A stretch of 64,000 nucleotides of DNA from Fidelibacterota bacterium (GTDB lineage: Bacteria; Fidelibacterota; UBA8477; JABMPR01): the NCBI GenBank assembly GCA_024278595.1, contig JAJRSW010000099.1:5573-69572 (forward strand), given 5' to 3'. Made by a program: the position numbers and the translations under genes. Shown here in pieces: positions 32,005-55,705 of this stretch. Position 1 is the stretch's first letter; every line of letters begins with the position of its first letter. The notes under the pieces were generated by a model. That model was not told where the DNA came from. It saw nothing but the letters and a program-made list of their open reading frames with translations, and searched no databases.

Positions 32005-32245
32005 TTGACGCCCCCGCAGAAAGTCCCTCTCGCAGAGGCCGCAGAGCGTTGCATTGAGTCCTTCGCTGAGCTCAGGAACCGCCCTTCGACAGAGCTCAGG
32101 GACCGCCCTTCGACAGAGCTCAGGGACCGCCTGTCGAAATGACGCAGAGTGTTGTTATTTATAGGTTTAGGCGTATTTGACATAAGTAATTGTATTTATT
32201 ATACATAGAGCATATTCCGTGCTTTTCCAAATACTTTTTGCGAGG
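32005..32245 (+). repeat. Family-2 MITE-like element (copy 1) carrying three 24-bp tandem units
   Basis: Left TIR ttgacgcccccgcagaaagtccctct. Internal tandem array gctgagctcaggaaccgcccttcg / acagagctcagggaccgcccttcg / acagagctcagggaccgcctgtcg. An AT-rich arm follows, then a degenerate right TIR ctttttgcgagg. Homologous copies lie at 40179, 43514 and 45078. Confidence 0.85.
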
Positions 32246-32266
32246 TCATCACAATTACCCCCAACA

Positions 32267-34387
32267 TTAAAAACCATAGGTGGCACTTAACCGCAGGGAA
32301 CGACCCGGTTCTGGATATCCACGGATACTTTCATACTGGAGATTTCCAATATTATCACCGGCTAACACCAGGGTGAATGCTCCAAGCTCACTGAACCAGG
32401 TCCGGGCCACACTGAGGGACCAGATCTCAGAAGCCCCAAGGATAGTATCCTCGGGATAATCGTACATACTGATCCGGTGAGAGACATAATTATACTGAAG
32501 ATTGAATTCCAGCTCATCTGGCGACCAGGTAAGGCCAAAGGCAGATGTCCGGTGAGGGGCATATCTTAGAGTTTTGTTCAGCGTATGATCCCTGGTATGG
32601 ATCAGGCTTAGATGGGCAAAGGCGGACAAGTGATACCCGGGATGGTGGATCTGCCACATGGCCTTGCTGCTTTCCCTGGTGGCTGATTGAACATTACCCG
32701 GTTGCCAATATGAGTGTACGGGCATCCATTGAATTAGATTGGTGCTCTCCTTTTTCTGCCACTGAAAAATAAGCTGACCCATGACCTGCAGGTCCAGATG
32801 AAGTTGAGCAGTGGTCACCTGCGTTTCTTCCGCTTTTAGGTCAGGATTACCCCCCGGTTCCCAAAACTGGTCATTAAAGCTGGGATATCTATACAACTCA
32901 CCTCTACTCACAGCAAGCCGGTTCAATGGTCCTAACTTAAAGGGAATCTGGAGCTGCAGGTTCGTGAGCATCTGTCCGTACAGCTCAGGGCTAAAATGAT
33001 AATTTAAAGCCGGGATCAGTTTCAGTCCCCTGGAAAACTGAAATATTGGGGCAATGGAGAGCACCAGGCTCACTCGGGAATGGTTGTTAGTGGCACTGCT
33101 GGCGATCAGATCCTGATTGAGGTTGAGATCGGTCAGAAGGACCAGTTTCTGGCCCACGGTTTGTTCGTTTCTTAATCCGAGATGGAAACTTTGCAGGCGG
33201 TGATCACTCTTCAGGTTCAAATACGGATTGACATAGGTCTCTCGGGAGCGTCGTAAGTTTAATTGCAAATGAGTATTACCGCTGGGTCGGATCCATCCAA
33301 AAGTTGAGCCCAGGAGCTGGAGTTGATCCTCCCGGTGGGAGATGGTATCCGGGGACCACACCAGCCCGGCAACACCGCGAGCCTGATGGGAGCTCATGGT
33401 TGTAAACTGCCAATACAGATCAGGACGCAGCATCCCCATGAACCTGAGTGCAACAAACTTCTGGGTCAGGTCATTGTTCTTTCTAAAACTTTCCGTATCA
33501 CTCCAAACCACCGGGTAATTGCCTGCTTCACGACGTTGTCCAAACTGAAGCGAGCTTCGGAATCCAGCGATCTGTTTTCTAAGGTTTACATCGTAGGCCA
33601 GATGACCGAAACTTCCGGTACTGAACGATAGATGGTTCGGCTGATCGCCTGTTTCCAGTTTTACGATCCCATCACTGCTGCCACTGCCAGTTTGAGCAAT
33701 GTCATAGGGGCTGTAATTCATGGCTTCCAGAAAGGGCAGGGGCAATTGAGAGATATCGGCTTCACCGTTCTGAGCCGAGGTGATATCGATGCCGTTTACC
33801 AGGACCCTGGTGTGGGAGCTGGGGCCACCATCCATGCTCAAGGTGCTGATACCCGCTGGTCCACCATAGGTCTTGATGGTAATACCAGGTATTCTATTTA
33901 ACGTTTTACTATGGTCCACTGTCCCAGCACCCCTGGTTTTGGTATATTCACTAAGTGGTGACGCGGCTGCGGAGGTTCCGGATAGGCTTTTTCCAATCAC
34001 TTCAACGGATTCCAGTGACATGACCAGGGGACTGAGTCTGACCTCTCCCAGTTGGAGCAGTTCGTCCGATGATAGAATTCTTTGCACATAACCAATCCGC
34101 TGAACCATGACCGAGTCATGTGGACTTATGGGGGCCGTGTAGCTGTATTGTCCATGCTCATCTGAGAGCAGGAATATTGCTGAATGCTTGAACACCAGGG
34201 ATACATAGGGGACAGATCGACCTTCCAGGTCAAGGGTGTATCCCTGAATGATGAAATTTCTATGCGGTTTATTAGGTGTAGCATGACCAGTGGAAAATGA
34301 GAATAGCAGAATGAGCAGGGCATAAAAAAAGCCCCGTCTCAAGGTGGGGCTGGCGTCTGAATGTTTCCTGGTTCTCAGGCTGATCAT
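32267..34387 (-). CDS. TonB-dependent outer-membrane receptor with an N-terminal carboxypeptidase-regulatory-like domain
   Basis: 706 aa. It has a signal peptide and the CarbopepD_reg-like segment FIIQGYTLDLEGRSVPYVSLVF, followed by a plug and barrel. The C-terminus ...SLRLSATYGF has a terminal aromatic. Confidence 0.85.
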   Translation of the reverse strand: MISLRTRKHSDASPTLRRGFFYALLILLFSFSTGHATPNKPHRNFIIQGYTLDLEGRSVPYVSLVFKHSAIFLLSDEHGQYSYTAPISPHDSVMVQRIGYVQRILSSDELLQLGEVRLSPLVMSLESVEVIGKSLSGTSAAASPLSEYTKTRGAGTVDHSKTLNRIPGITIKTYGGPAGISTLSMDGGPSSHTRVLVNGIDITSAQNGEADISQLPLPFLEAMNYSPYDIAQTGSGSSDGIVKLETGDQPNHLSFSTGSFGHLAYDVNLRKQIAGFRSSLQFGQRREAGNYPVVWSDTESFRKNNDLTQKFVALRFMGMLRPDLYWQFTTMSSHQARGVAGLVWSPDTISHREDQLQLLGSTFGWIRPSGNTHLQLNLRRSRETYVNPYLNLKSDHRLQSFHLGLRNEQTVGQKLVLLTDLNLNQDLIASSATNNHSRVSLVLSIAPIFQFSRGLKLIPALNYHFSPELYGQMLTNLQLQIPFKLGPLNRLAVSRGELYRYPSFNDQFWEPGGNPDLKAEETQVTTAQLHLDLQVMGQLIFQWQKKESTNLIQWMPVHSYWQPGNVQSATRESSKAMWQIHHPGYHLSAFAHLSLIHTRDHTLNKTLRYAPHRTSAFGLTWSPDELEFNLQYNYVSHRISMYDYPEDTILGASEIWSLSVARTWFSELGAFTLVLAGDNIGNLQYESIRGYPEPGRSLRLSATYGF

Positions 34388-34711
34388 TCCGGTCCCTTTG
34401 CTCGCGAAGGTTCATGAAGAGTGAGTGCTTAGCATAAGTATCCTGACTTCCAGATCATCCTCCGTAGATGCCTTCCCTCATTATTGAAGTGGCAATTATC
34501 TACATCGTCCCTGGTTACAGTAGCGCGACTGTGCCCGATTTTCACGAGCTTCCTTGTGCTAAGATCTATTTACAAAAATCGCTGTTAGGTTATTCTGAAA
34601 TGAAGCGGTTGTCAATTCATTTGTTTGGGGTTTTATTGATTGCCAGTAAAAATGCAACCACGGATTACACAGATTTGTTTTTTGGTTTGGATGTTTGGGG
34701 TGTTTGGTAGA

Positions 34712-34740
34712 GACGCAATGCCTTGCGTCTCTACAGAATT
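34712..34740 (-). terminator. Perfect 12-bp stem hairpin between the RlmL-like gene stop and the TonB-receptor gene start
   Basis: gtagagacgcaa-tgcc-ttgcgtctctac, 28 nt downstream of the 34768 stop on the minus strand. It lacks a clear U-tract. Confidence 0.5.
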
Positions 34741-34767
34741 GCCCCCAATTTGGAAAATCAGATAGAT

Positions 34768-35946
34768 TTAATACATCACAAATTTAGCAAACCGGCCATC
34801 CAGACCACCATTCATCAGTGGCTTTTTCCATTCCGGTCGTAGGCCAATGTTTTTTAAATATTTGCGTTCCCCAAAATAGATATAGGCTTCACTACCCGCA
34901 CATTTATGTTTGAGCCAGTCACCTAAATTCTGATAGAATTCTGAAAGATCCTGACCCCGTTTTAGTCTGATCCCATAGGGTGGGTTCATGATCAGGGTGA
35001 CACCCTCCGTATTGCCAATGTCCTGGTAATCTTTCCGATGGGTATAGATCCCAGCACCACCAGGCAGGTGTCCCAGATTGCGTTTAGCGACCCGCATGGC
35101 ACTGGGATCGATATCAGAAGCCTGGATCGGTACCTGCTCCAGCGACTGAAAATTATTATCCATACCTTTCCGGATTCGTTTCCACAGCGCTGGGTCATAA
35201 TCGGGTAAGCGTTCGAAACCGAATGATTTCCTGAAATATCCAGAAGAGAGCTTGGTAAGCTGCATATAGGCTTCGGCCGCCAGGGTACCCGACCCGCACA
35301 TGGGATCGATGAGGTTCTTTTCACCGGTCCAACCGGTAAACTGGATCAGGGCTGCTGCCAAAGTCTCCTGCATGGGTGCTTCAACCGTATCCAAACGGTA
35401 GCCCCGGCGGTGCAGGGAACTCCCGCTGGTGTCAATACTGATAACAGCGCGATTATTCTCGATGTGCAGGTTGAACCAGATATGGGGGAATTTAGGATCC
35501 ACATTGGGTCGCCGCCTGAGTTTGTCCTTAAAGCGATCAACAATGGCGTCTTTCAGTTTCAACGAGGCGTACTGCGAATGGGTGATCTGACTATTACTTA
35601 CCTGGGCAAAAATAGCAAAGGTTTGATCCGGGGAGAAGATCTCTTCCCAGGGGATATCCATGGCGGTCTTGTATAAATACTTTGCGCTGTGGCAATCGAA
35701 AGAAAGGAGAGGGGCCAGAACTCTGGTGAGCAGTCGTGATCCGTAGTTGATCCTGTATAAGGCTGCTTTATCAGCAGAAAAATAGAGCCCCCGATAGCGC
35801 TGTTTGATGCTGGTAGCACCCAGATCTTTTATTTCTGTAGCTGCGAGTTCTTCAAGACCATTAGCCACCTGGGCAAAAAAGTGTCCTGTTTTAAGATATT
35901 GAAATTCCATTTTTGCCTCAAAAATTTGCCAGCCGCGGATTTTCAT
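34768..35946 (-). CDS. THUMP-domain class I SAM-dependent RNA methyltransferase (RlmL/RlmKL-like, rRNA guanine-N2 methyltransferase family)
   Basis: 392 aa. It has an N-terminal THUMP-like region, GSGTLAAEA (SAM motif I) and IMNPPYG (N6/N2 MTase motif IV). Confidence 0.8.
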   Translation of the reverse strand: MKIRGWQIFEAKMEFQYLKTGHFFAQVANGLEELAATEIKDLGATSIKQRYRGLYFSADKAALYRINYGSRLLTRVLAPLLSFDCHSAKYLYKTAMDIPWEEIFSPDQTFAIFAQVSNSQITHSQYASLKLKDAIVDRFKDKLRRRPNVDPKFPHIWFNLHIENNRAVISIDTSGSSLHRRGYRLDTVEAPMQETLAAALIQFTGWTGEKNLIDPMCGSGTLAAEAYMQLTKLSSGYFRKSFGFERLPDYDPALWKRIRKGMDNNFQSLEQVPIQASDIDPSAMRVAKRNLGHLPGGAGIYTHRKDYQDIGNTEGVTLIMNPPYGIRLKRGQDLSEFYQNLGDWLKHKCAGSEAYIYFGERKYLKNIGLRPEWKKPLMNGGLDGRFAKFVMY

Positions 35947-36040
35947 AGATAAACGCGGGATTTGTTAAATTTATAAAATTACCTATGATGATTGCATTTA
36001 AGTAACGGTGATTTGATGAAAAATACCAGAACACTTTTAG

Positions 36041-36211
36041 CCTGAATAATTCATAGCCACTCAGTCACGAAGACAAAGTTTAAAAAATATATGCTTAGCA
36101 ATAATTATCACTCACAGATGCAAATAATTCTGTTTAAAATGACCTTGTTCATAACTTTAATAATCTTCCTAGCTTAGTGTCGTGGCAATAATTCATGAAT
36201 GATGCGGTTAG
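36041..36211 (+). repeat. Copy B of the ~175-bp family-1 repeat. The CCTGAATAATTCAT end faces the RlmL-like gene start 95 bp away.
   Basis: About 90% identical to 55706-55883 and to the reverse complement of 25481-25663. Confidence 0.85.
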
Positions 36212-36348
36212 AAAGGATCATTTTATCTTGCTTTTTAATACCACTTTCGCCCATCTCGACAGGTGGTTCCTGAGTTCAGTCGAGGGTCGCAAAGCAGTGC
36301 TCCGCAAATTTAGTGCGAGCACAATATTCTCGATGATAAGTGTTTGGT

Positions 36349-38181
36349 CTAGTCATTCAATCGTTTTTCTTTGCGCATTTGAGAGAGTCGCTTATTGGGA
36401 TCCAGTTCCATCTTGCGAATTCTGATATTCTCTGGGGTGATCTCCACCAATTCATTCTCAGAAATGAATTCAATGGCTTGATCAAGCGTAAGGACCTTTG
36501 GTTTGCGCAGGGTCACCGTGGCGTCAGCGTTGGCGCTGCGCATATTGGTGAGCTTCTTTTCGCGGGTAATGTTCACATCAAGATCACCCGGTCGATTACG
36601 TTCCCCAATGACCATGCCACCATAGACTGAGGTTCCCACTTCAATCTGCAGCTCTCCGCGATCTTCCATACTCAGGCTGGCATAAGCAGTCACTTTACCA
36701 GGACGATCAGACACCAGGGCACCTGTTTTACGTTGGGGGATGGCACCGAACCATGGTTCATAGCCTTCCATGATGGTATTCATCACACCGGCTCCTTTGG
36801 TGTCAGTCATAAAAGTTGAGCGAAAGCCGATGAGGCCGCGAGAAGGAATCCGAAATTCCAGATTGACCCGACCACTGCCATGGTTGATGATATTGACCAT
36901 CCGACCTTTTCGCGCTGACAGTTTCTCAGACATAACCCCCACAAATTCCTCAGGAATGTCCAGGTAGAGCATCTCAACCGGTTCGTTTACGGTTCCGTCG
37001 ATTTCCTTGGTGATGACGCGTGGCTTGGAGACCATGAATTCGTAGCCTTCGCGTCGCATGGTCTCGATGAGGATGGCCATCTGTAACTCACCGCGCCCCT
37101 TCACCTCAAAGGCATCAGCACGGCCGATTAGCTGCTGAATATGCAAAGCGACATTCAGACGCATTTCTTTTTCAAGACGAGCCAGGATATGGCGGGAGGT
37201 GAGATATTTTCCGTCCTGACCGGCGAAAGGGCTGGTGTTGACGTAAAAGATCATGGATACGGTGGGTTCATCGACTTCGATCCTGGGCAGAATCGCCGGA
37301 TTCTCGATCGAGGTTACCGTGTCGCCGATGGAAATAGAATCGATCCCGGCAAAGGCGATGATGTCACCGGCCTCTACTTCTTCAACCTGTTGGCGACGAA
37401 GACCATCAAAGGTATAGAGGGCCGAAAATTTCACATTAGGCGTGTGTTTATGCTCACCGGCCAGCAGATAATTCTTATTCATTTCCAAGGTACCATTGTT
37501 CAACCTGCCAATAGCGATCCGACCGACATAGGCGTCATAATCAAGGTTAGCGATGAGGAACTGGGGAACATGATCATCTTCTGCTTCCGGTCCGGGGATA
37601 TAGTCTAGTATGGCATCAAATAAGGGTCGCAGGTCGGTCGAATCATCATCTAATTCAAGGTGCGCCACACCCTCTTTTGCGATGGTATATAGAATGGGAA
37701 AATCGATTTGTTCTTCTTCCGCGTCCAGGTCAATAAAGAGATCATAAACTTCATTGATGACTTCGTCGATGCGTGAGTCGAGGCGGTCTATCTTGTTGAT
37801 AACCAGCATAATTTTGATATTCTTCTCAAGTGCTTTCTTAACTACGAAACGAGTCTGTGGCAGGGGACCCTCACTGGCATCGACCAGCAGAATTGCACCA
37901 TCGACCAGGCTAAGGCCACGTTCAACTTCACCGCCGAAATCGGCATGTCCCGGGGTATCGATGATATTGATCTTTACATTGTTGTAGGTGATGGCAGTAT
38001 TTTTGGCGCTAATGGTAATCCCACGTTCACGTTCCAGATCCATGCTGTCCATGACCCGGTCAGTCAATTCCTGATTTTCCCGGAAAATGCCACTTTGACG
38101 GAGCATCCAATCTACCAGGGTGGTCTTGCCATGATCAACGTGGGCGATGATGGCGATATTTCTAAAATTCTCTTTACGCAT
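36349..38181 (-). CDS. typA: Translational GTPase TypA/BipA
   Basis: 610 aa. N-terminus [24 protein letters not shown] carries the G1-G4 motifs of an EF-G-like domain. Confidence 0.95.
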
Positions 38182-38419
38182 TCAATTCCTTTCGGGAGGA
38201 TCCACCTGAGCGAAGCGCCACAAAAATAAGCAGTTAAAAAAGCGCGTGCAGGATGCGTTTGAAAGTGGCTGATTCCAATAAGAAAATAGGAGATCGAGGT
38301 GAAAGGGGAAAATGGCTGTCTTGTTGTTAACCGCGAGCAGTGTTAGTTATAAGTTGAGTTTTGGTTATTACCACTAAACCCCCTTAATAGTCCTATTGTG
38401 AAAGTAGGCTTTCAACTTA

Positions 38420-38545
38420 ACCTGAATTATTCACCAGAAAAGGTACAATGAATTACAAGTATGTGATAATATTAAAGATGGATAATTTATTCTTGTTTGG
38501 ATGTTAGAATACTTATTTCCAGCACTAATCTTTCTATCTTTAATA
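38420..38545 (+). repeat. Degenerate partial copy (D) of the family-1 repeat. The CCTGAATTATTCAC end faces the typA start.
   Basis: cctgaattattcacc ... tctttctatctttaataatatc parallels cctgaataattcatagcc ... gttcataactttaataatcttc of copies B and C. Similarity is weak. Confidence 0.3.
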
Positions 38546-38701
38546 ATATCAGCGTATATCAGCGGCTAATTTAAGTGGTATGAATTAATGAGGTTAAATA
38601 GGTTCTTGCTCAGCAAGCCATTGGATTAGCAGAGAACCGTGCTAAATTCCTGCTTGTCTGAATGATAACGAAGTGTACTAATATCTGATGGGAGGTTCCA
38701 G

Positions 38702-39292
38702 ATGTCCGCAATGTACCTTGAGATGGTTAAGCTCTTATTTGTAGTTGGTGGCTTTATTGCCCTTTGCATGGGTGTCCTCCTGTTTGTTAGGCCAGAGATG
38801 GTCCAGGGGCTCAATCAGGCTGGTAATAAATGGTACTCCGCCAGGAAGAGTACCAAGCCGCTGGACATTGTTCGTGATACCAATTCATTTTACTTTAACA
38901 ACAATCAGCTCATCGGTACGATCATGCTGGTGGCTTCAATATTAGCATTTTATCTGATATATACTCGCATCCCCACGACTGATCAATACCTGGCAGTTGT
39001 GGGAAATGCCAGTTCAGCTATGGGGGTTGGAATCCTCCTGGAATCCCTACGATTGGTACTATTGGTCATTACTATCCTGGGCTTCCCGGTGTGGGGCTTA
39101 TTGATATTTAAACCAGAGACCTTGAAGTTGGTCAACACGTATCTTGATAAGTGGATCTCCACCAGATTACTACTACTCCCGCTGGAGCAGATGAATAGCA
39201 GTTTTGATGGGTATGTTGTGCGCAACAATCGCATCTTTGGAGGTTTCTTTATCCTTGGAGCAATCTTTATTCTGTTCAATTTTCTCAGGTGA
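38702..39292 (+). CDS. Hypothetical membrane protein (196 aa, 4-5 TM)
   Basis: Hydrophobic ORF with a GGGAGG RBS upstream. No family recognised. Confidence 0.5.
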   Translation: MSAMYLEMVKLLFVVGGFIALCMGVLLFVRPEMVQGLNQAGNKWYSARKSTKPLDIVRDTNSFYFNNNQLIGTIMLVASILAFYLIYTRIPTTDQYLAVVGNASSAMGVGILLESLRLVLLVITILGFPVWGLLIFKPETLKLVNTYLDKWISTRLLLLPLEQMNSSFDGYVVRNNRIFGGFFILGAIFILFNFLR

Positions 39293-39333
39293 TTTTAGTT
39301 CAAACTTTACCCGTTCATATCCGTCAGTAATTC

Positions 39334-40056
39334 ATGACTGCAAAAGCAAACAAGATCTATGCAGTATTTATTGGTCATCGTCCTGGCTTATATGTGAGTT
39401 GGAATGATGCCTCTGCTCAAGTACAGGGATTTAAGGGGGCTAAATATAAAAGTTTTACCCAGCGCGAAGCGGCTGTTCAGTGGTTAAGAGAATGCGTGTT
39501 GGCGGCCAGTGGTCCAGTAGATGAAAAGCTGATCACTCTGCTCAAATCAGCCAGTTCATCCATAACAACTGATCCAGCTGCAGCGGAATGGGGGAAGATC
39601 ATCATTCACACTGATGGGGGAGCCTCGCCGAACCCTGGAAAAGGGGGCTATGGGGTGGTGCTACAGCAGGGGCGACTACGAAAAGAATTGTCTGCCGGCT
39701 TTAATTTGACCACCAATAACCGCATGGAAATGTTGGCTGTGATCGTGGCTCTGGAAGCCTTGAAAGATCCATCGACAGTGGTGCTGCACACAGATTCAAA
39801 ATATGTGGTTGATTCGATCTCGAAGCGTTGGGTCTATGGGTGGCAAAAGCGGGGATGGAAAAAATCAGACGGAAAGCCCGCTGTTAACATTGATCTTTGG
39901 CAAAGGTTATTACCGCTGTTAAAAGAACATAAAGTCGAGTTCAAGTGGGTCAAAGGTCACGCTGGCAATGTGGAAAATGAGCGTTGTGATACTTTGGTCA
40001 GTGAAGCTAGGCAAGCATCAGACCTGCTACAGGATACTGGATATTCTGCGGGCTGA
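39334..40056 (+). CDS. rnhA: Ribonuclease HI with an N-terminal hybrid-binding (caulimovirus VI-like) domain
   Basis: 240 aa. The N-terminal KIYAVFIGHRPGLYVSWNDASAQVQGFKGAKYKSFTQREAAVQWL is the HBD. The RNase H core is IIIHTDGGASPNPGKGGYGVV...NNRMEMLAV...HTDSKYVV...WVKGHAGNVENERCDTL. Confidence 0.85.
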   Translation: MTAKANKIYAVFIGHRPGLYVSWNDASAQVQGFKGAKYKSFTQREAAVQWLRECVLAASGPVDEKLITLLKSASSSITTDPAAAEWGKIIIHTDGGASPNPGKGGYGVVLQQGRLRKELSAGFNLTTNNRMEMLAVIVALEALKDPSTVVLHTDSKYVVDSISKRWVYGWQKRGWKKSDGKPAVNIDLWQRLLPLLKEHKVEFKWVKGHAGNVENERCDTLVSEARQASDLLQDTGYSAG

Positions 40057-40178
40057 ATATTCCTGGTTAACATGATGTTCTTGTTGTTAATAGCTCCAGC
40101 CTCGAATTCTTCGGACAAATACTAATTGCAGTTCTAAAGTGGTTATTAAGTCCCAAATAATTATTATTATTCACAAAC

Positions 40179-40336
40179 TGGACGCCCCGCAGAAAGTCCC
40201 TCTCGCAGAGATCGCAGAGACGCAGAGTGTTGTTATTTATGAGTTTAGATGTGTATGCTGTATGTGATTGTATTTATACGACTTAGGGTATATTTAATGC
40301 TTTCGCAGCTACTTTTTGCGGGTTCGTCAAACTTTG
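40179..40336 (+). repeat. Family-2 MITE-like element (copy 2, short form without the 24-bp array)
   Basis: ctggacgccccgcagaaagtccctctcgcagag ... ctactttttgcgggttcgtcaa. Both TIRs are present and the AT-rich arm is homologous to the copy at 32005. Confidence 0.8.
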
Positions 40337-40570
40337 AATACGAAGCATGTTGTCGACGGGCAGGAAAACTGGAAAAGATGACGAAGTTACCGCCAGTCTG
40401 GAGCTGAAACTGGCATAAACCTAACCCGCATATTTCATGAGGAATAGATCGTGAACCCTCATGAAATATGAGAGCCAGACGCCTAGTTCAGGAAAATCCC
40501 TATACTCAAGGCAATCGACAACAGTATATTGATCGCGATGCATGGATATTATCACTCACAATAATTTTCT

Positions 40571-43471
40571 GTGATCGGAAAGACGTTAACCACAAATGAT
40601 CTGGAGTTATTTATGAATATTGACCTGCTTATTCTAAGCTCTGAGGTCTTGTTCTTTTATACCATAGTGCTGGGTTTGCATGCTTTGCGACGCCGAGTCA
40701 CCCTGGTTCCACTCTTGGCCCTAATGGGTGGTATTAGCGCCATAATGTACTGGGTTTCTGCCACAGGTCTTAGTGTTGAACTCCTCGGCCTCTCATTTTT
40801 TGTAAGCTCGACCGTCTTTTATACCTCATTATTGCTGGGAGTTTTTGTTATCTATCTTTTTGATGGGCCAGTAGCTACCAGAAATTCGATCGTGGTAATC
40901 ATTGCTGTGTCGGCGATGGTTCCGTTGATCAACCTGGGCTTGAACCTTCAAGCGGAATTGTCTGGTACTCCCATATTAGCTAATCTGCCAATGGCAAACC
41001 TGAGGATAAATTCGGTCTCGGTAATAGCGACTCTGATTGACCTTATATTTCTGGCGATCCTCTGGGAATATTTGAGTAAGTTAACATTCAATATTCCGCT
41101 CTATTTGCGTATCTATCTAACCCTACTAAGCATCATGTGGCTGGATGTACTTTTATTTGGAACCGGTGCTTTTGCCGGGTCGGGTTTTTACTGGGATTAC
41201 CTTAAAAACACTCTGTTAAGCCGGTTCATTATTTCAATCTTCACCTTTCCCATTCTCTGGGCATACATCGTCTGGCAGAATTCCAGACACAAGATCAGTG
41301 TCCAGGCAAGACCAGCCTGGAGGGTGCTTGGTGACATGGCGGAGATGAAACAGGAACTGCTGACCGCCAAACAGGAGTTGGCAGAGCAGAAAAAAAACGA
41401 AGATGTGATCCGCGAAAGTGAATTGCGATTTCGAAATTTATTTGAATATGCTCCCGTGGCACTATGGGAGGAGGATTTCTCTGTTGCCAAGGAAATTCTA
41501 AAACAACTTCAGACAGACGGGATTGTCGATATTGGGCAGTATCTGGACGATAACCCGGATGTCCTGGCCGATCTTGTACAAAAAGTCCGTATTGTTAATT
41601 GCAATCAAGCAGCCCTTGACCTGCACCAGGCAAAGGATAAAGCAGATCTTTATGAAAATCTGGATAATATTTTCACTCCGGAGTCATTTGTTACATTCAA
41701 GGCAGAGATGGTCGCCATTGCTGAAGATCAAAACGAGTTTGAATCTGAAGCAATTCTAAAAACAATTCAGGGTGAAGAACGCCATGTCCAATTAAAGTTG
41801 ATCACGTTGCGTACTGATGTACGCGACTACTCACGTACCTTGGTGGTAACTGCTGATATTACAGGGAACAAACTAGCCGAAGTAGCACTCAGGGATAGTG
41901 AAAAGAAGTTTCGGGATCTATTTGAAAAATCAGGTGATGCCAATTTGATCATTAGGAATGACCAGTTTGTGGACTGTAATCAGGCGACAGTGACCATGCT
42001 TGGTTATCTGAATAAAGCAGAAATGTTAAACACACACCCCGCCGAATTAAGTCCTGATGAGCAGCCTGATGGTCAAAAATCATTTGCAAAAGCTGAAGAA
42101 ATGATGCGTATTGCCGTCGCGAAAGGCAGTCATCGCTTTGAGTGGGTGCATCGGCGACAAAATGGAGCTACCTTTCCGGTGGAAGTCTTGCTGACTTTGA
42201 TCTCGGGTGATGGAGAGAACAAAATTATTCACACTGTTTGGCGAGATATCACCAGGCGTAAGCAGGCTGAGCAAGAAAAACTGGATTTCGAAAAAAAGAT
42301 CCTCCAAACTCAAAAGTTGGAAAGTTTGGGTGTGTTAGCTGGGGGGATCGCCCATGATTTTAATAACATTCTCATGGGGATATTGGGGTATGCAGATTTA
42401 GCTCTGTCATCTCTCAGTCCTTCATCACCAGCCAAAGAATATGTGGAGGGGATCAATAGCGCTTCCCGCAAGGCGGCCGATCTGATCAAACAAATGCTGG
42501 CGTATTCTGGTAAAGGGAAATTCACTCTGGAATCCATCAACCTCAATCATCTCATCCAGGAAACGGTTCAGATGTTGAGCATATCCATCTCCAAGAATGC
42601 AGTATTGAAATTTAATTATGCCCAGGACCCCGTCGTGTTGGAAGGTGATCCTTCCCAGATTCGCCAGATCATCATGAACCTGGTGATAAATGCTTCCGAA
42701 GCGATTGAGAAACACAGTGGGGTGATATCCCTGTCCACGGGTCAGATGTACTGTGACCAGGACTATATCGACAGTACCGGCTTTGCGGAGAAAGTCTCCC
42801 GGAAAGAGCCGCTGATTGAAGGCCTGTATGCATTTGTAGAGGTCTCAGATACTGGGATCGGTATGTCAAAGGATACAATTCATAGAATATTTGACCCTTT
42901 CTTTACCACTAAATTCACAGGCAGGGGGCTGGGATTATCAGCGGTACTTGGTATAGCCAATGGGCATCATGGTATGGTCAAGATCTATTCAGAAGAACAT
43001 AAGGGAACCTCGTTTAAAGTTCTGTTTCCATTGTATGAGGGCTCGATTGACGTCAATAAAATCAATGCATCCGAAGAGTTGGCAGAAAAATGGCAGGGTC
43101 GGGGTACCATCTTGATCGCGGACGATGAAGAAGCTGTCCGCAGCATTGGGAAGCACATGATCAGGAAACTGGGGTTTGAAGTATTGACTGCTGCGGATGG
43201 CCAGGAAGCTATTGAATTATTCAAGCAACACAGGAATGAAATTGTTGGCGTATTATTGGACTTAACCATGCCGCATAAGGATGGGGCAGAGGTCTTTCAA
43301 GAAATTCGTGGGATCAACCCTGATGTAAAAGTGATCCTGTCAAGTGGCTATAATGAGCAGGATGCCACCCAGCAATTTATTGGGAAGGGGCTGGCTGGTT
43401 TTATCCAGAAACCTTATGTCTCTGCGGATCTGGTAAAAAAAATAAAAGAGGTTATGGGTCAGGATTCATAG
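40571..43471 (+). CDS. Hybrid sensor histidine kinase: N-terminal polytopic membrane domain, PAS/PAC repeats, HisKA, HATPase_c and a C-terminal receiver domain
   Basis: 966 aa. About 8 TM segments in residues 1-220. A coiled coil is followed by PAS regions. H-box GIAHDFNNIL. G-boxes DTGIGM and GRGLGLS. Receiver ILIADDEEAV...VLLDLTMPHKDG. Confidence 0.9.
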   Translation: MIGKTLTTNDLELFMNIDLLILSSEVLFFYTIVLGLHALRRRVTLVPLLALMGGISAIMYWVSATGLSVELLGLSFFVSSTVFYTSLLLGVFVIYLFDGPVATRNSIVVIIAVSAMVPLINLGLNLQAELSGTPILANLPMANLRINSVSVIATLIDLIFLAILWEYLSKLTFNIPLYLRIYLTLLSIMWLDVLLFGTGAFAGSGFYWDYLKNTLLSRFIISIFTFPILWAYIVWQNSRHKISVQARPAWRVLGDMAEMKQELLTAKQELAEQKKNEDVIRESELRFRNLFEYAPVALWEEDFSVAKEILKQLQTDGIVDIGQYLDDNPDVLADLVQKVRIVNCNQAALDLHQAKDKADLYENLDNIFTPESFVTFKAEMVAIAEDQNEFESEAILKTIQGEERHVQLKLITLRTDVRDYSRTLVVTADITGNKLAEVALRDSEKKFRDLFEKSGDANLIIRNDQFVDCNQATVTMLGYLNKAEMLNTHPAELSPDEQPDGQKSFAKAEEMMRIAVAKGSHRFEWVHRRQNGATFPVEVLLTLISGDGENKIIHTVWRDITRRKQAEQEKLDFEKKILQTQKLESLGVLAGGIAHDFNNILMGILGYADLALSSLSPSSPAKEYVEGINSASRKAADLIKQMLAYSGKGKFTLESINLNHLIQETVQMLSISISKNAVLKFNYAQDPVVLEGDPSQIRQIIMNLVINASEAIEKHSGVISLSTGQMYCDQDYIDSTGFAEKVSRKEPLIEGLYAFVEVSDTGIGMSKDTIHRIFDPFFTTKFTGRGLGLSAVLGIANGHHGMVKIYSEEHKGTSFKVLFPLYEGSIDVNKINASEELAEKWQGRGTILIADDEEAVRSIGKHMIRKLGFEVLTAADGQEAIELFKQHRNEIVGVLLDLTMPHKDGAEVFQEIRGINPDVKVILSSGYNEQDATQQFIGKGLAGFIQKPYVSADLVKKIKEVMGQDS

Positions 43472-43513
43472 ACGCCATTCTTCTAATCAAGAGTGGTCAG
43501 GTGAATTTTGAAT

Positions 43514-43786
43514 ATTGACGCCCCCGCAAAAAGGATTTGCAAAAACACGGAATATACCCTATGCGCAATAAATACAACAACTTATGACAAATATATCTAA
43601 ACCTATAAATAATAACACTCCGCGTCATTTCGACCAGCGGTCCCTGAGCTCTGTCGAAGGGCGGTCCCTGAGCTCTGTCGAAGGGCGGTCCCTGAGCTCT
43701 GTCGAAGGGCGGTCCCTGAGCTCTGTCGAAGGACTCAACGCCACGCCTCGCGGCCTGTGGTAGAGGGACTTTCTGCGGAGGCGTTA
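43514..43786 (-). repeat. Family-2 MITE-like element (copy 3, inverted orientation) with five 24-bp tandem units (four perfect, one variant)
   Basis: Ends ttgacgcccccgcaaaaag (43515-) and gagggactttctgcggaggcgt (-43783). Four perfect units of ggtccctgagctctgtcgaagggc and one flanking variant lie at 43625-43731. These create the artefactual ORF 43497-43907 (FDRAQGPP repeats). Confidence 0.85.
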
Positions 43787-44068
43787 AAATCGACCTTAAA
43801 ATATGCACATTGGCTGTGCTGAAAAGAATCGAATGAAGAAGTGAACATCTCGACCTGCGCAGGTTCAAAATTCGATACTCTACATTCAAAAAATGCTCCG
43901 AAGTCATAAAAAAGCACCAAAAGCTGCTTCACGCTATCGAAACCCAGGTTATATTTCGGGCGATGTCAGCTATTATCCTTCTGGAGTAAAAAAATATATC
44001 ATAGCAAGAATCGATGGGTCAAATATTAATCGATCTGTTAACAACCAATAAACAATGGTGGAACGAAA

Positions 44069-44893
44069 ATGGATTTGAATACAATTATTAACACGCCGCC
44101 CTGGGAGTGGGAAGACGGGACTGGCGAGTATCTCCTAACCATCATCAGGGATAAGCAAGCTGAAGGCGCTGCCAGACGGCGAGCCATAGAACTGTCAGGC
44201 AACCTGATCCTCATCAATGATGAGATTGCCATGACACTCATAAATATTCTCCTGGATACTGATGAGCCGGCTAATATTCGTGCAATGTCAGCAATTGGTC
44301 TGGGACCGGTGTTAGAGGAGATGGATATGTACGATTCGGATCTGCTTGACCTGCCCTATGAGGAGGAGGTTCCCATCTCAACCATGATTTATCACGAAAT
44401 AATGGGTACAATGAAAACCGTTTATGATGATGCGACAGCGCCCAAACAGGTCCGTCGACGTATCCTGGAAGCCTCAATCCTCTCACGACAGGAATGGCAC
44501 CAAAATGCCATTGAAACAGCCTATGCCAGCGATGATCTGGATTGGGTAATTACGGCCGTATTCTGTATGCAATCAATTTCAGGTTTTGATGAGCAGATCC
44601 TGGAAGCCCTGGAACATGAGAATCCCATCGTTCACCGTAACGCTGTCCTGGGAGCTGGATTGTGGGAACTGAAAGCGGCACAGAAACATGTCGTTAGAAT
44701 TCTAGAAAATGAGAAAGAAGATCTGGATCTGCTTCTGACAGCAATTGAGGCCATCGTTGAACTGGCCCCTGCCGAGGCCGGGATCTATCTACTTGATTTA
44801 GCTGATTGGAAAGATGAACAAATAGCTGAAGCGGCCAATGACGCCATGATGGAAGCCGCCATGCTGTCAGAAATGGAGGAAATGGATTTATAG
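44069..44893 (+). CDS. Hypothetical acidic protein of 274 aa, possibly with HEAT/armadillo-like repeats
   Basis: ORF with a GGAACGAAA RBS-like upstream. Repeated helical LxxLL segments. No secure family. Confidence 0.5.
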   Translation: MDLNTIINTPPWEWEDGTGEYLLTIIRDKQAEGAARRRAIELSGNLILINDEIAMTLINILLDTDEPANIRAMSAIGLGPVLEEMDMYDSDLLDLPYEEEVPISTMIYHEIMGTMKTVYDDATAPKQVRRRILEASILSRQEWHQNAIETAYASDDLDWVITAVFCMQSISGFDEQILEALEHENPIVHRNAVLGAGLWELKAAQKHVVRILENEKEDLDLLLTAIEAIVELAPAEAGIYLLDLADWKDEQIAEAANDAMMEAAMLSEMEEMDL

Positions 44894-45077
44894 CTCCAGA
44901 ATATTAAGGGGTCCCTGCACTGCGTCTTCACCCTGCCGGTTTGGGCTTGCGCCTTCAGATTGTTTGTGATGGCAATAGGCCGACTCGATATAAGATAATC
45001 ACATTATCTTACTGCTGTTTTAGCACCCGCTCTTGAATCGTCTGGATAAGTTGAAAATATTTCCTCATTTTTCAAGC

Positions 45078-45400
45078 TTGATGCCCCCGCAGAAAGTCCC
45101 TCTCGCAGAGGCCGCAGAGCGTTGCATTGAGTCCTTCGACTGAGCTCAGGAACCGCCTGTCGAAATGGCGCAAAGTGTTGTTATTTATTGCTTTACGTGT
45201 ATTTGTCGTAAGCGGTTGTATTTAAAGGTTATAGGGCATATTCTGTGGTTTTCTAAATACTTTTTGCGAGCTCATCAAACTTGATGTCCCCGCAGAAAGT
45301 CCCTCGCCGACACGATTGTCGGGATGAGGATTTTAAGTGTGCCACACTGAGTTCATCGAAGTGTGCCACACTGAGTTCATCGAAGTGCAGAAAAATGAGG
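45078..45400 (+). repeat. Family-2 MITE-like element (copy 4, one 24-bp unit) followed by a second partial TIR and a 2x 24-bp array of a different unit
   Basis: 45078-45270: ttgatgcccccgcagaaagtccctctcgcagaggccgcagagcgttgcattgagtccttcg + one unit + AT arm + ctttttgcgag. 45281-45310: a second TIR-like ttgatgtccccgcagaaagtccctc. 45337-45384: the unit gtgtgccacactgagttcatcgaa repeated twice. Confidence 0.8.
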
Positions 45401-45452: not shown

Positions 45453-45582
45453 ACAATTACAATTACCCCAGGCTTCAGCCTGGGGATAATAAGTCACTAA
45501 TAATATAGAGCATTAGCCCAACTACATTGCCAGTAATCGGGGGCTAAAGCCCGATAATTATCCTGGAAACAACCCCCCCACG
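45453..45582 (+). repeat. Three similar GC-rich stem-loops (REP-like hairpin triplet) in an AT-rich context
   Basis: Hairpins ccccaggcttcagcctgggg (45453-72), atcgggggctaaagcccgat (45523-42) and ccccacgctgaagcgtgggg (45563-82). Each is followed by ataat/taatt. Confidence 0.6.
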
Positions 45583-45677
45583 CTGAAGCGTGGGGTAATT
45601 GATCCTATGCTATCAGGCAAGTCGGTATAAATTGATCAAGCGAAGCATATTGTGAGACACTCAAGTAATTATTAGGG

Positions 45678-46856: not shown

Positions 46857-47442
46857 GATCCAGGTAGAGATCCGTCCCGTCACCGATATAGCAGCTCAGC
46901 AACTGGAGTACCAGGTGTTCTTGGAGGCTGGCTATATAGATCCCAATCAGGAACAGCTGGTACTGGAATATGCAAAATACTCAAGATCAGAATTTATCAT
47001 TACCCGGGATGGCCCCCAGCTGACCGGTGTGGTTCGACTCATATATGCAAATGATGAGCGTCCCACACGGGGTCTGCCAACTCTGGAAAATTTTAATCTA
47101 TATGATGAGTGGCAAGCTAAAATAACACGATTAGCGACCCGCAGGCTGGGTGAATTTGGGACCCTGGCTGTTCTCAAAGCATATCGAGGAGGGCGCTCGA
47201 CTTATCTGCTAAAACAGAAGCTCATCCTCCACCCTGTTTTAAAAGGGTATCGATATGGGGTTAGTCTCATAGATGAGGGACTCCTGAAGCACCTGGTGAA
47301 AGGGGGCTACCCCCTTAAACAGATCGGCGATAAGCGTTATTATATGGGCTCTGTGACCGTACCTGTGCTGGGGAGTGTTTATCACCTACCCAGAACCTTG
47401 CGAACCTGGGTGTGGAACTTTATGTTACGCTCCGGGCGTTAA
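46849..47442 (+). CDS. Hypothetical protein of 197 aa, possibly a GNAT-fold N-acyl amino-acid/autoinducer-synthase-like acyltransferase
   Basis: Overlaps the decarboxylase by 8 nt, indicating translational coupling. Its 3' end overlaps the convergent radical-SAM gene by 4 nt. Similarity is weak. Confidence 0.45.
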   Translation: MGEIQVEIRPVTDIAAQQLEYQVFLEAGYIDPNQEQLVLEYAKYSRSEFIITRDGPQLTGVVRLIYANDERPTRGLPTLENFNLYDEWQAKITRLATRRLGEFGTLAVLKAYRGGRSTYLLKQKLILHPVLKGYRYGVSLIDEGLLKHLVKGGYPLKQIGDKRYYMGSVTVPVLGSVYHLPRTLRTWVWNFMLRSGR

Positions 47443-48845
47443 TGCTTCAATCTTTTAGCCGGGTAAAAATGTTCCCCCCAAATGATCATCTTTAACATGA
47501 AGAAAGCTAGTTTAGTGGATCCCATGACAATTCTGAACATGGTGCCAAGACTAAATTTATTCACCAAATAGCCCAAATTATTATTCACATAATTGATATA
47601 CAGACTGGAAAGTAACATCTGGAATAAATAGCTGCGGACGCTCATTTTTCCGGGGCGAATGATCATTTGTCCAAATGTCCAAAAATGGTAATCCTCTTTA
47701 TCGACCAGCAATCGATCTTTATATTCATGATAGATTGGGAGGTTAGGGAAGGGGGTTAAAGGGCTAAAAGTACATATTTCAGGTTTTAGCGTTCGCATAT
47801 ATTGCCTGAACAAACGAAAATCTGCCTGATCCCAGTCCGGGTGAAAAATAAAGGAAGCCCAACAATCCACTTTTATATCCTTAAGTAATTTACTGGCTTC
47901 CAAATTATCATCCACCGATGATTTTTTATGATAGTCAGCCAACTCACTATCTTTGAATGATTCGTAACCTACCAGCACAGCGCGAAGACCATTATGGGCA
48001 AATTGGGTTACTGCCTTTGTGTTGGTTAAAAGACCATGAACACTACCGTAACAAATGAAATTTTTTGAAATGTTTTCCGCTTCCAGGAGCGTACAGAACT
48101 TTTCAAGTCGCGGACCATTATTTAGAAAATCATTATCATAAATCATAATGGTCGGTTCCTGGATATCTTTGATCTGCTGGATCACCTCATTTAGGTCTAT
48201 ATCCACTTCATGGCCGCCTTCAATGCGCCAACGTAGACAGAAATGACAGCCCTTGCTGCACCCCAGTGAGGTTTGCATAATGGCAGCCGGCTGATAGCCA
48301 AAATAATTGTAATGTTGGCGGTAGACTTGAGTGGATTGGCGGTCTGGGACAATATATTCATTATAGCCCTTATTCCCTGAAAAAGCAAATTCAAGCTGTT
48401 TGCTGCGAATACCATCAATGATCGGTACGGCAGTACCAGATGCCAGGAGGGTGAAGAGTTGGCCAATGTTTGCCCGGGTGGTATACTGGAAAATGTGATC
48501 AATTTCAGGTTTAAAAAATGCCTCTGGAGCCAGATAAGTTTGGGTTCCTCCCACAATGGTAACGATGGCAGGTCGGATTTCTTTCACTTGCCTGGCCAGT
48601 TTGAGAGCTGCTGGTACATCCACACACAGGGTTGTGAAACCAACGACTTCCGGGTGCCATTTTTTGATAATATGGGGGAGTGATCCAGGATCATCGATCA
48701 TGAGATCAAGGATTCTGATGTCATGCTCATTTTTTAAAACAGCAGCAAGTATTTCAAGCCCGATCGGTTCGCTGAACATGAATTCGCCCAGGGTGACAGC
48801 CTGTTTCATTCTGGGAGGTCGAATAAGTAATACTTTCAATGTCAA
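47439..48845 (-). CDS. B12-binding radical SAM protein (class B cobalamin-dependent rSAM, putative methyltransferase), paralog 4
   Basis: 468 aa. N-terminal B12-binding Rossmann region LKVLLIRPP...ILDL. Radical-SAM cluster motif SLGCSKGCHFC (CxxxCxxC). Confidence 0.85.
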   Translation of the reverse strand: MTLKVLLIRPPRMKQAVTLGEFMFSEPIGLEILAAVLKNEHDIRILDLMIDDPGSLPHIIKKWHPEVVGFTTLCVDVPAALKLARQVKEIRPAIVTIVGGTQTYLAPEAFFKPEIDHIFQYTTRANIGQLFTLLASGTAVPIIDGIRSKQLEFAFSGNKGYNEYIVPDRQSTQVYRQHYNYFGYQPAAIMQTSLGCSKGCHFCLRWRIEGGHEVDIDLNEVIQQIKDIQEPTIMIYDNDFLNNGPRLEKFCTLLEAENISKNFICYGSVHGLLTNTKAVTQFAHNGLRAVLVGYESFKDSELADYHKKSSVDDNLEASKLLKDIKVDCWASFIFHPDWDQADFRLFRQYMRTLKPEICTFSPLTPFPNLPIYHEYKDRLLVDKEDYHFWTFGQMIIRPGKMSVRSYLFQMLLSSLYINYVNNNLGYLVNKFSLGTMFRIVMGSTKLAFFMLKMIIWGEHFYPAKRLKH

Positions 48846-48854
48846 TTGCTCCTG

Positions 48855-50180
48855 CTAAATGATATTGGGAGTGATCCTGCGCTTGATCTGTTGTTTATAA
48901 TACAAATTGACCATCAGATAAAAGAGGTGTCGTAAGGGGTGCCTCAGAAACCCGTAATGATAAAATACCCGACTTAAAATATTGGGAATGGAGAATACGT
49001 CCTCATATAGATCCCAATAAGCTTTTGTAAGCTCGTCAGCACTCATATTCTTGGGGTCGTGAACCGCAGTTGTACTATCATAGCTAAAGTAGTCGTGATT
49101 GATAATCCGGTCATCACGTAACATCTCAGCGTGAAACTCAGTGCCGGGAATGGGGGTTAGAATATAGAACCGTGGTACCACCACCCGATTTTCCCGTACA
49201 AATGCCGCAGTTGCCTGTATGGAAGCCAAAGTATCACCGTCAGCACCAACAACCATCTCGGTTGATATATCAATCCCCGCTTGACGAATCTTTTTGAGCT
49301 GTGAATGATACCTGGAAACTTTGCCCCAGCTTTTTCCCATGGCATTCATACTATCCTGGGAAATACTTTCTAAGCCAAAACTCAGCCCGATGCAGCCGCT
49401 GTCAGCCACTGCCTGTAGCAATTTATCGTTATCAGCCAAGGTGATTGAACATTGCGAGAACCATTCCATTTTCAGTTTAGAGATCTCCTGGCATAGTTCT
49501 ATAGCATAGGTCGGGTCAGAGACCAGGTTATCATCCAGGAGCAAAAACTTCTTAAATCCCAGAGACTTTATCTGACTGATGTCCCTGATCACGCTGGCTA
49601 TACTGCGTTTATAATAGCGTCTTTGATAGAGGCAATACACGGAACAAAAGGAGCAGGCGTGGGGACATCCACGGGCGGCCTGAACCGGGAGAAAATCACC
49701 GATAGATTTATCAAGCAGGAGTTCATAACGAGGCAGGGGGGGGTCAAATATGGCTAGCTGGCGATCATAGACCTTTTTTAGACAGCCATTTTCAAAATCC
49801 TGCAAGACTTCGGGCCATAGCTCATCTGCATCACCTACGATTACAGCATCACTATAATCCTGAGCCTCTTCCTGCATGAGACTGGCCATATACCCGCCGG
49901 TGATCACAGTTTTACCCAGGCGGTGAAATTCCTTAGCTATGTCAATGGATCGATGTACGGCATGTCCCATGGTACCGATACCGATCAAATTAGCATCCGT
50001 GTCGAAAGGGAGCTCGTCAATGGTCTCCAGACAGATCTCAACCTCCCAATGGTCAGGTGTAACGGCTGCCAGCAGGGGAAAGGTAAGCCCCACAAAATAC
50101 AAGCGCTTCTTTTTAATGACCTGCCCTTCCCGGTCGTATGGAGAGGGTTGGATGAACAGGACCTTGTATCGTTTTGGCAT
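48855..50180 (-). CDS. B12-binding radical SAM protein, paralog 3
   Basis: B12-binding domain plus ARGCPHACSFC (CxxxCxxC). The ORF track starts at 50228 (457 aa), overlapping the upstream gene by 47 nt. The likely true start is MPKRYKVLFIQP at 50180 (441 aa). Confidence 0.85.
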   Translation of the reverse strand: MPKRYKVLFIQPSPYDREGQVIKKKRLYFVGLTFPLLAAVTPDHWEVEICLETIDELPFDTDANLIGIGTMGHAVHRSIDIAKEFHRLGKTVITGGYMASLMQEEAQDYSDAVIVGDADELWPEVLQDFENGCLKKVYDRQLAIFDPPLPRYELLLDKSIGDFLPVQAARGCPHACSFCSVYCLYQRRYYKRSIASVIRDISQIKSLGFKKFLLLDDNLVSDPTYAIELCQEISKLKMEWFSQCSITLADNDKLLQAVADSGCIGLSFGLESISQDSMNAMGKSWGKVSRYHSQLKKIRQAGIDISTEMVVGADGDTLASIQATAAFVRENRVVVPRFYILTPIPGTEFHAEMLRDDRIINHDYFSYDSTTAVHDPKNMSADELTKAYWDLYEDVFSIPNILSRVFYHYGFLRHPLRHLFYLMVNLYYKQQIKRRITPNII

Positions 50181-50181
50181 A

Positions 50182-51579
50182 TTAGCTGGTCTTCGAAGGC
50201 TTGGCTGAGCATACAAACCATGCAGCAAATATCTTCAGCAAGTACTGGATCGTAACTATGGTAGCTCCCCGTGACAGTTTAAGGGTCTCCCAAACACCAT
50301 ATCTGGTCAGCATGCGATAAATACTGGATCCCCGCATGGTGATCTTATAATACAGTTTGACGATATTCCAATAATAGTTATGGGGTGTAAGTTTAGAGGG
50401 CTTTAGCACCAAATGAGCCAGGTCCCATTCTTCATAATTATCACGTTCCACAATCAAACTATCAACATAAGTTTCGAATATCTCAGTTCCCGGTAGTGGG
50501 GTGAGCGGCTGTAAATTAACAAAGATCAGGTCCAATTTCCGGATCCAGGCATAGAGCTTTTGGAAATCTTCGCCAGACCAATCAGGAGAGAGGATGAATG
50601 TACCATAACAATCAATCCCGTTCTCAGCCAAAATACGCACGGCCCTTTCACTGGTTTCCAAACTGGTCTTCTTGACGTAACTATCTAATTCATCCTGATC
50701 CCAGGACTCCAGTCCAACGATTACAGCCCGCAAACCAAGTGCTTTAAAACGGGTCATTACATCGGGATTGGTGGCAATAAAATCGGCCCGACCATAGATT
50801 AAAAATTGTTTTTGAATGTTGCCCAGCTCTAGTTTGTCACAAAACTCCAGGACACGCTCTCGACTTACCAGAAAGTTGTCATCCACAATATAGATCTCTG
50901 GTTCTGAAATTCCGGCAATTTCCTGGATCACATCATCGATGGGTCTGGCAAAATACTGTTCATCGGTGATCTGAATGCAAAAGCAAAAGTTACATGAGTA
51001 GGGACAGCCATATGATGTTTTGATCAGGGCACAGGGGTTATGAAACATGTAGTAATAGCTGGAGCGGTAGCGTCTCGTCAATTCACGAGCTGGGAAATAG
51101 TCTGGAAAAGAGATCGATTTCGCTGGGACCACTTTCAGCTGCGGATTCCAGAGCCCCGGAATTTCTGTGGTACTTTGATCAGTGGAAAGGCGATCAACCA
51201 ACTGGGGGAATGATAGGTGGGCATCGGCGGCAATGATATAGTCGATATGTGGGTCTTCATAGTCAGCCGGTTGAACTTCTGCATGAACCCCTCCGACCAC
51301 GATAGCACAGTCCGGCCTTATTGACTTGATTCGCCGGGCGTATTCCTTGATCAAATTGACATGGGTGATGTATCCTGTCAAGCCCACCAGGTCAGGGGTA
51401 TGTTTTTGAATAAAGTGTGCCAGAGTCTTCCGCTCCAGGATCAGGTCGATAATAATAACCTGGTGCTGTTTCGCGACGGAGGCGGCCATATATTCCAATT
51501 CAAGTGGTTCACAAACCATGACGTATTTTAGTCCGACTGTATTGGTCGGAGGTTTCGGGCGTACCAGCAGAATTTTCAT
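50182..51579 (-). CDS. B12-binding radical SAM protein, paralog 2
   Basis: 465 aa. N-terminus MKILLVRPKPP. Cluster motif SYGCPYSCNFC. Confidence 0.85.
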   Translation of the reverse strand: MKILLVRPKPPTNTVGLKYVMVCEPLELEYMAASVAKQHQVIIIDLILERKTLAHFIQKHTPDLVGLTGYITHVNLIKEYARRIKSIRPDCAIVVGGVHAEVQPADYEDPHIDYIIAADAHLSFPQLVDRLSTDQSTTEIPGLWNPQLKVVPAKSISFPDYFPARELTRRYRSSYYYMFHNPCALIKTSYGCPYSCNFCFCIQITDEQYFARPIDDVIQEIAGISEPEIYIVDDNFLVSRERVLEFCDKLELGNIQKQFLIYGRADFIATNPDVMTRFKALGLRAVIVGLESWDQDELDSYVKKTSLETSERAVRILAENGIDCYGTFILSPDWSGEDFQKLYAWIRKLDLIFVNLQPLTPLPGTEIFETYVDSLIVERDNYEEWDLAHLVLKPSKLTPHNYYWNIVKLYYKITMRGSSIYRMLTRYGVWETLKLSRGATIVTIQYLLKIFAAWFVCSAKPSKTS

Positions 51580-52211: not shown

Positions 52212-52215
52212 AAGG

Positions 52216-55701: not shown

Positions 55702-55705
55702 CTAA

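Follow-up and report, generated by a model that had tools for sequence, protein, structure and literature searches.

A MITE-like repeat family with a BOX-like layout and a variable 24-nt tandem array in a Marinimicrobia lineage

A 64-kb stretch of a Fidelibacterota genome (assembly GCA_024278595.1, contig JAJRSW010000099.1, positions 5,573 to 69,572; hereafter the window) carries a family of small intergenic repeats with inverted ends and an internal tandem array of 24-nt units. With a probability of roughly 0.7, we regard this family as old, non-autonomous, mobile repeats of one Marinimicrobia lineage that resemble MITEs (miniature transposable elements with inverted repeats) and share the layout of the BOX element; the host was placed in Marinimicrobia by TypA (best match 94% at the amino acid level). 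The family was delimited by repeat finding, MAFFT alignment and an nhmmer profile, and comprises four full copies, one isolated left end and one decayed fragment, all of them intergenic and together spanning 13.1 kb. The 19-mer TTGACGCCCCCGCAGAAAG has six matches with up to three mismatches (32005, 40312(-), 43515, 43769(-), 45078 and 45281) against 0.01 expected from shuffled sequence, and the 24-mer unit has seven matches against none expected. Elements measure 152–273 nt, the four full copies share 70–85% pairwise identity, and both orientations occur, always between co-directional genes.

The full copies are named here by their position in kilobases. Copy c32k (32005-32252, + strand) is a long form with left end, CGCAGAG repeats, GC-rich arm, three units, AT-rich arm and right end, located between a riboswitch-controlled TonB receptor gene and a gene with a type IX secretion system (T9SS) tail. 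Copy c40k (40179-40330, +) is a short form composed of both ends, three CGCAGAG 9-mers in a row and the AT-rich arm, devoid of GC-rich arm and array, and lies upstream of a gene for a 966-aa sensor kinase. Downstream of the same gene, c43k (43515-43787, -) is an inverted long form, and c45k (45078-45278, +) is a long form with a single unit, presumed to be the unexpanded state. The isolated left end (45281-45313, +) starts two nucleotides from the right end of c45k (CATCAA-AC-TTGATG), and the sequence beyond it is unrelated to the family. A reading of this end as the start of a full copy that has diverged and carries a 24-nt array of its own was rejected, as alignment scores beyond ~30 nt fall within the shuffle range. 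The first-pass annotation of the region had listed the four copies and the solo end at 45281, all of which are present, with copy boundaries now corrected to those given above; it had missed the decayed internal fragment (GC-rich arm plus one unit) at 36236-36308(-) in the TypA-RlmL spacer, which adjoins a member of a second, unrelated repeat family. Its description of a dispersed, MITE-like, non-coding repeat located between open reading frames (ORFs) is supported.

Read in element orientation, the left end has the extended form TCAARN-TTGAYGCCCCCGCAGAAAGTCCCTCT, with TTGAYGCCCCCGCAGAAAG followed by GTCCCTCT. In the long form it is followed by two CGCAGAG direct repeats, the GC-rich arm (CGTTGCATTGAGTCCTTCG), one to four 24-nt units, GAAATGACGCAGAG, the AT-rich arm with its conserved blocks GTGTTGTTATTTAT and TTGTATTTA, and the right end, CTTTTTGCG..CGTCAA. 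Across the family there are two or three CGCAGAG repeats, an optional GC-rich arm and zero to four units, and both arms can be aligned between copies, as had been claimed. Terminal inverted repeats of 19 bp had been proposed as well; the 19-nt ends exist, but within a copy only 14–16 of the 19 positions are complementary, position 15 being consistently G in the left and A in the right end. Without a single change, the subterminal 17-mer CCGCAGAAAGTCCCTCT recurs in all four full copies, and 16 of its 17 nucleotides are kept in the isolated end, whereas the extreme termini vary. The CGCAGAG motif occurs 13 times in the window (4.4 expected), eight of these inside elements. Element GC content (43–52%) brackets that of the window (46%) and of intergenic sequence (44%).

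The tandem array differs in length between copies. It has three units in c32k (32065-32136, +), of which the first and last are boundary variants, and four perfect units plus a boundary variant in c43k (43631-43732, -). Tandem Repeats Finder reports 3.0 units at 32060-32131 and 4.0 perfect units, in its own register, at 43637-43732; c45k has one unit and c40k none, so that the proposed variation of unit number between copies is borne out. In the single-unit copies (c45k and the L045 allele described below), the 24-nt segment is enclosed by the short direct repeats CCTTCGA and CCTGTCGA (CTGGTCGA in c43k), whose TCGA cores are spaced by exactly 24 nt. Every internal junction of the expanded arrays reads CCTTCGA, and the boundary variants stay in the first and last units. 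The c43k array also generates an ORF (43497-43907, -) that reads FDRAQGPP three times and then a truncated FDRAQGP; the sole ORF across c32k lies on the opposite element strand, which marks the FDRAQGPP frame as spurious, in agreement with the first-pass annotation.

A second assembly (L045, GCA_021648165.1) matches the window at 99.8% identity over 2888 nt and contains c43k at the same site with identical flanks. This allele is exactly 72 nt, or three units, shorter, and thus has a single unit, against four in the window. At the one-unit junction lies a 26-mer that the four-unit allele lacks, so that a k-mer assembler at k of at least 26 could not yield this junction by collapsing the array. 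We infer that the two assemblies differ by a true variable-number tandem repeat (VNTR) polymorphism between strains. The pattern of units and junctions reads as the signature of slipped-strand mispairing or of unequal exchange between short direct repeats, with further slippage once at least two perfect units are present. Starting from a single segment between the near-identical repeats CCTTCGA and CCTGTCGA, either process would gain or lose whole units, and unit number would come to differ among copies and strains, leaving the array as a secondary feature of the element. Slippage had been put forward before and is supported by these observations. The four units are perfectly identical inside a copy that is 18–30% diverged from its relatives, which shows that arrays expanded much more recently than copies were inserted. 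Dynamics are demonstrable for the array only and not for the element, and the accompanying suggestion of an active, recently expanding element finds no footing: copies differ by 15–30%, one is decayed, no target-site duplication of 3 bp or more was found and no transposase was identified in the 64 kb.

Comparison with related Marinimicrobia contigs argues for insertion. These contigs keep the gene order receptor, T9SS-tail gene, further genes, RlmL, TypA and RNase H, and in four related assemblies the orthologous intergenic spacers lack the element. In L037, the receptor gene overlaps the T9SS-tail gene by 14 nt; the two are separated by 54 nt in L049 and 128 nt in L047/L048, against 355 nt in the window, of which the element accounts for 248. 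The c32k site is hence empty in L037, L047/L048 and L049, with sequence conserved on either side of the 128-nt gap in L047/L048. The TypA-RlmL spacer measures 19–30 nt in L035–L039, 137 nt in L034 and 402 nt in the window. Presence and absence differ between species only; the two near-identical strains both carry the one comparable copy. At the level of gene order, and for the sites that could be compared, the copies are therefore lineage-specific insertions, and an origin as part of a larger conserved syntenic intergenic block, the alternative named at the outset, is contradicted by relatives that have the same gene order without the element.

Profile searches of the relatives' loci retrieved a single copy, in L046 (GCA_029935835.1), a contig that, like L045, was reached through homologues of the flanking sensor kinase. 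L046 is from a different species (kinase 74% identical at the amino acid level) and has a short-form copy that lies directly upstream of the kinase orthologue, is truncated where the contig ends and is inverted relative to c40k. The family is thus present in at least two species, with short and long subfamilies. The kinase, a VUPS-PAS hybrid sensor kinase, is bracketed in the window by c40k and the inverted c43k, and we considered a composite transposon (40179-43787). This candidate was not supported: its outer ends have no flanking duplication, and the orthologue in L046 (1-3164) has a copy upstream only. A repeat-mediated rearrangement at the bracketed kinase gene is possible. The five loci within 13.1 kb correspond to P ~0.007 under uniform placement across the window, a clustering compatible with local hopping or with a permissive region. 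Gene order shared with relatives breaks right after RNase H, where copies are densest. Signs of a genomic island were not seen in the window (no GC anomaly, no tRNA), which has the appearance of ordinary chromosome with housekeeping and metabolic genes.

According to the mobile-repeat reading, copies would have entered intergenic spacers in either orientation by means of a transposase or recombinase encoded elsewhere, and would then have diverged. Both the transposition mechanism and the absence of a host function are inferred, and several results weigh against this reading. No target-site duplication of at least 3 bp was found at any copy in any register, with boundary offsets of ±4 nt or by eye at ±6 nt; since the copies are old, a very short duplication could have decayed. 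No transposase or integrase domain was identified in ORFs of at least 150 aa in the window, and the 19-nt ends were found there in small elements only, with no longer element sharing them. Exact-word scans with the conserved end against genome and metagenome collections (as an 18-mer) and viral collections returned chance singletons only: in local BLAST and nhmmer analyses every collection match consisted of the seeded word alone, in unrelated taxa. The L046 end differs from the 18-mer at two positions, which shows why exact-word scans would miss such a copy. Relatives with empty sites are 56–70% identical in the proteins encoded by the flanking genes, too diverged for reconstruction of the target at base level. 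Finally, the invariance of CCGCAGAAAGTCCCTCT is odd for pure decay, and a constraint at the level of the host could be involved.

The junctions bear on how such an element would move. The six bases outside the left ends are TCAAAA, TCAAGC, TCAAAC, ACAAAC, TCAAAC (L046) and TCGATT, and two right ends are similar. Unexpectedly, junctions in this set of five or six copies can thus be read as a TCAA-NN-TTGA palindrome. The inverted ends may really have a length of ~25 nt, or else TCAA-NN-TTGA palindromes may be targets of the element, possibly as a circle junction; the conserved end sequence probably extends 6 nt beyond the 19-nt ends. An exact 11-mer, ATATTCAAAAT, abuts two termini and probably belongs to the flank pattern with TCAA instead of being a target-site duplication.

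These flanks give rise to a first alternative, namely that the element moves by site-specific recombination instead of cut-and-paste transposition. In this scheme, the two ends would abut in a circular form (CGTCAA-NN-TTGACG), which would recombine with short TCAA-NN-TTGA palindromes in the genome; with exchange taking place inside the 2-nt core, a true target duplication would not arise, in keeping with the missing duplications of 3 bp or more. TCAA or a three-of-four match to it is located at -6 to -3 outside every left end (c32k, c45k, isolated end, c40k, c43k and L046) and outside two right ends; exact TCAA at no fewer than three of five independent left ends gives a post-hoc P of ~7e-7. 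Likewise, 2-nt direct repeats flank two of the four copies (AC..AC at c40k, AA..AA at c32k), and a right and a left end abut at 45273-45286 with two bases between them. The same pattern would nevertheless arise from inverted ends of ~25 instead of 19 nt, two right ends (c32k and c43k) do not fit, the motif was picked post hoc from only five or six copies, and the window contains no recombinase gene. The IS30 family, best known for 2-bp-spaced end junctions, offers an architectural precedent. Its (IS)2 junctions consist of abutted ends with a 2-nt spacer, 2-nt flanking repeats and flanks resembling the element's own ends. The likeness to the abutted ends, possible 2-nt repeats and end-like flanks described here is architectural only; a relationship by homology was rejected, as the inverted repeats of IS30 from E. 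coli K-12 show no similarity to the ends above shuffles and no IS30-type transposase is encoded in the window. Taken together, we consider site-specific recombination unlikely. A more elaborate version, in which the circular own-end junction recombines with genomic palindromes through a Marinimicrobia recombinase partner, CGCAGAG-type motifs (also found inside the 24-nt units) act as protein-binding sites and array length tunes mobility or local regulation, is speculative and, in our estimate, quite improbable.

A second alternative holds that the repeats are cis-acting modules, such as protein-binding platforms, promoters, attenuators or RNA-processing sites, which were duplicated and kept under host selection to regulate neighboring genes and are not selfish DNA. 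The blocks CCGCAGAAAGTCCCTCT, GTGTTGTTATTTAT, TTGTATTTA and CTTTTTGCG persist despite 15–30% overall divergence, CGCAGAG-type motifs are multiplied, the neighbors include a B12-riboswitch operon and a sensor kinase, both regulated, and BOX and Correia elements are known to influence expression (PMC3049150, PMC10969869). Against this, orientation relative to flanking transcription is mixed (three versus two), copies also lie at the 3' ends of genes and in mid-operon, and relatives have the same genes without copies. No terminator-like sites were detected inside copies, and promoter-like sites in the region do not exceed their frequency in shuffled sequence. The sigma70-like TTGACA-N17-TATACA, which the first-pass annotation took to be shared, is restricted to c32k, the other copies having TTGTCA...TGCGCA, TTGTCG...AGGTTA and ATGCTG...ACGACT, and an internal sigma70 promoter was discarded as neither conserved nor enriched. 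Single-strand folding reproduces the terminal stem alone, with z-scores of -0.8 to -2.8. Nothing seen here therefore points to a host function; the invariant subterminal blocks would still allow for one, and regulatory modules have a small chance of being the right explanation. A family of small structured non-coding RNA genes is highly improbable: the predicted folds of all copies have a long terminal stem, but none of the copies matches Rfam at the gathering threshold or even at E<=1, the internal fold is no better than in shuffles, array and GC-rich arm can be missing entirely (c40k, L046), and neither a conserved promoter or terminator nor an orientation bias is seen.

Among known elements, the mobile repeats described here are closest in layout to pneumococcal BOX and in general class to bacterial MITEs such as Correia. 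Inverted ends, small size, lack of coding capacity and presence or absence between species are all in line with a MITE, whereas no target-site duplication of 3 bp or more was found and AT-richness is lacking; the AT-rich, highly base-paired structure described for MITEs (PMC3049150) has no counterpart in an element of 43–52% GC in which only the terminal stem is robust. The likeness to BOX, found in S. pneumoniae and S. suis, lies in a composite intergenic repeat with two different inverted-repeat-like end modules around a short tandem module, the number of which varies by locus and strain and may be zero; here it is zero, one, three or four, with one versus four at the same locus. The boxB module is about 45 nt long, compared with 24 nt for the present unit. 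Further differences are the host (Marinimicrobia instead of a Firmicute), the position of the array within a GC-rich arm that adjoins an AT-rich arm, and the number of copies seen, five to six instead of >100 per genome. BOX elements follow the order boxA-boxB(n)-boxC, include short forms without boxB (A1C1), and vary more between strains when arrays are larger (PMC3049150); both BOX and the present family can create spurious ORFs (PMC10969869). The match was set by layout and concerns architecture, not homology to boxA, boxB or boxC, and we do not claim BOX membership.

Correia elements (CREE/NEMIS) of Neisseria, a classical bacterial MITE, are likewise 100–270 nt long, non-coding and intergenic, with inverted ends of ~20–26 bp, both orientations, and long and short forms that differ by an internal deletion. 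They duplicate a TA target. The TA duplication that accompanies the 26-bp inverted repeats of Correia was not found in the present family, whose flanking dinucleotides are AA/AA, AC/AC, GC/AC and TT/TA; a conserved promoter is missing as well, and the tandem array has no Correia equivalent. Correia elements harbor an IHF site and outward promoters, and inversion has been reported (PMC10969869), a parallel to the inverted orientation of the L046 copy relative to c40k. The family is therefore described as MITE-like with BOX-like modularity and is assigned to neither of the two named families.

The window also contains another MITE-like family, unrelated to the first, at 25485-25670(-), 36037-36205(+) and 55700-55885(+). 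Its copies are ~170–186 nt long, AT-rich, with inverted ends of approximately CTAACCTGAATAATTCAT, and are 91–94% identical, which makes this family younger than the one under study. One copy lies beside the decayed fragment in the TypA-RlmL spacer, and none was found in the relatives' loci. Its presence suggests a genome permissive for such elements. Just past the isolated left end, an independent perfect 24-nt tandem duplication (AAGTGTGCCACACTGAGTTCATCG x2.2, 45335-45387) has a unit unrelated to that of the family, and the common 24-nt period may be a coincidence. At 45460-45601, upstream of a decarboxylase gene at 45678, there is a pair of inverted 26-nt arms (CAATTACCCCAGGCTTCAGCCTGGGG / CCCCACGCTGAAGCGTGGGGTAATTG) that are spaced 90 nt apart and both have a separate GC hairpin; Rfam gave no match, and the arms could be a repetitive extragenic palindrome (REP)-like element or a leader structure. 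Their 11-mer ACAATTACCCC also abuts the right end of c32k (32251-32261).

A cobalamin riboswitch (Rfam RF00174, 70.6 bits) at 34416-34602(-) precedes the TonB-dependent receptor gene (32267-34387, -), and the window also contains B12 uptake and adenosyltransferase genes. A run at 47439-53514(-) of four B12-binding radical-SAM genes and a methyltransferase gene, beside FeeM-like and GNAT genes, is possibly a small biosynthetic cluster. Elsewhere, the N- and C-terminal domains of an acetyl-CoA hydrolase/transferase are encoded on two overlapping ORFs (12585-13205 and 13066-13881, +), a split that could be due to a frameshift or a sequencing error or could mark a pseudogene.

Marinimicrobia (SAR406), uncultured bacteria that abound in the ocean, are known almost only from metagenome-assembled genomes, and a full-text literature search returned no paper on MITEs or other small mobile repeats in this group. 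The finding extends a known phenomenon to another lineage rather than opening a new one. Families of this MITE-like type could plausibly be why contigs break in short-read assemblies, and one same-species contig stops 17 nt past a copy. The VNTR inside the element is usable as a strain marker, given that two 99.8%-identical assemblies differ by one versus four units. Lastly, c32k parts two genes of a cobalamin-riboswitch-controlled uptake operon that overlap or lie 54–128 nt apart in relatives, and is thereby a case in which the effect of a repeat on operon structure can be tested.

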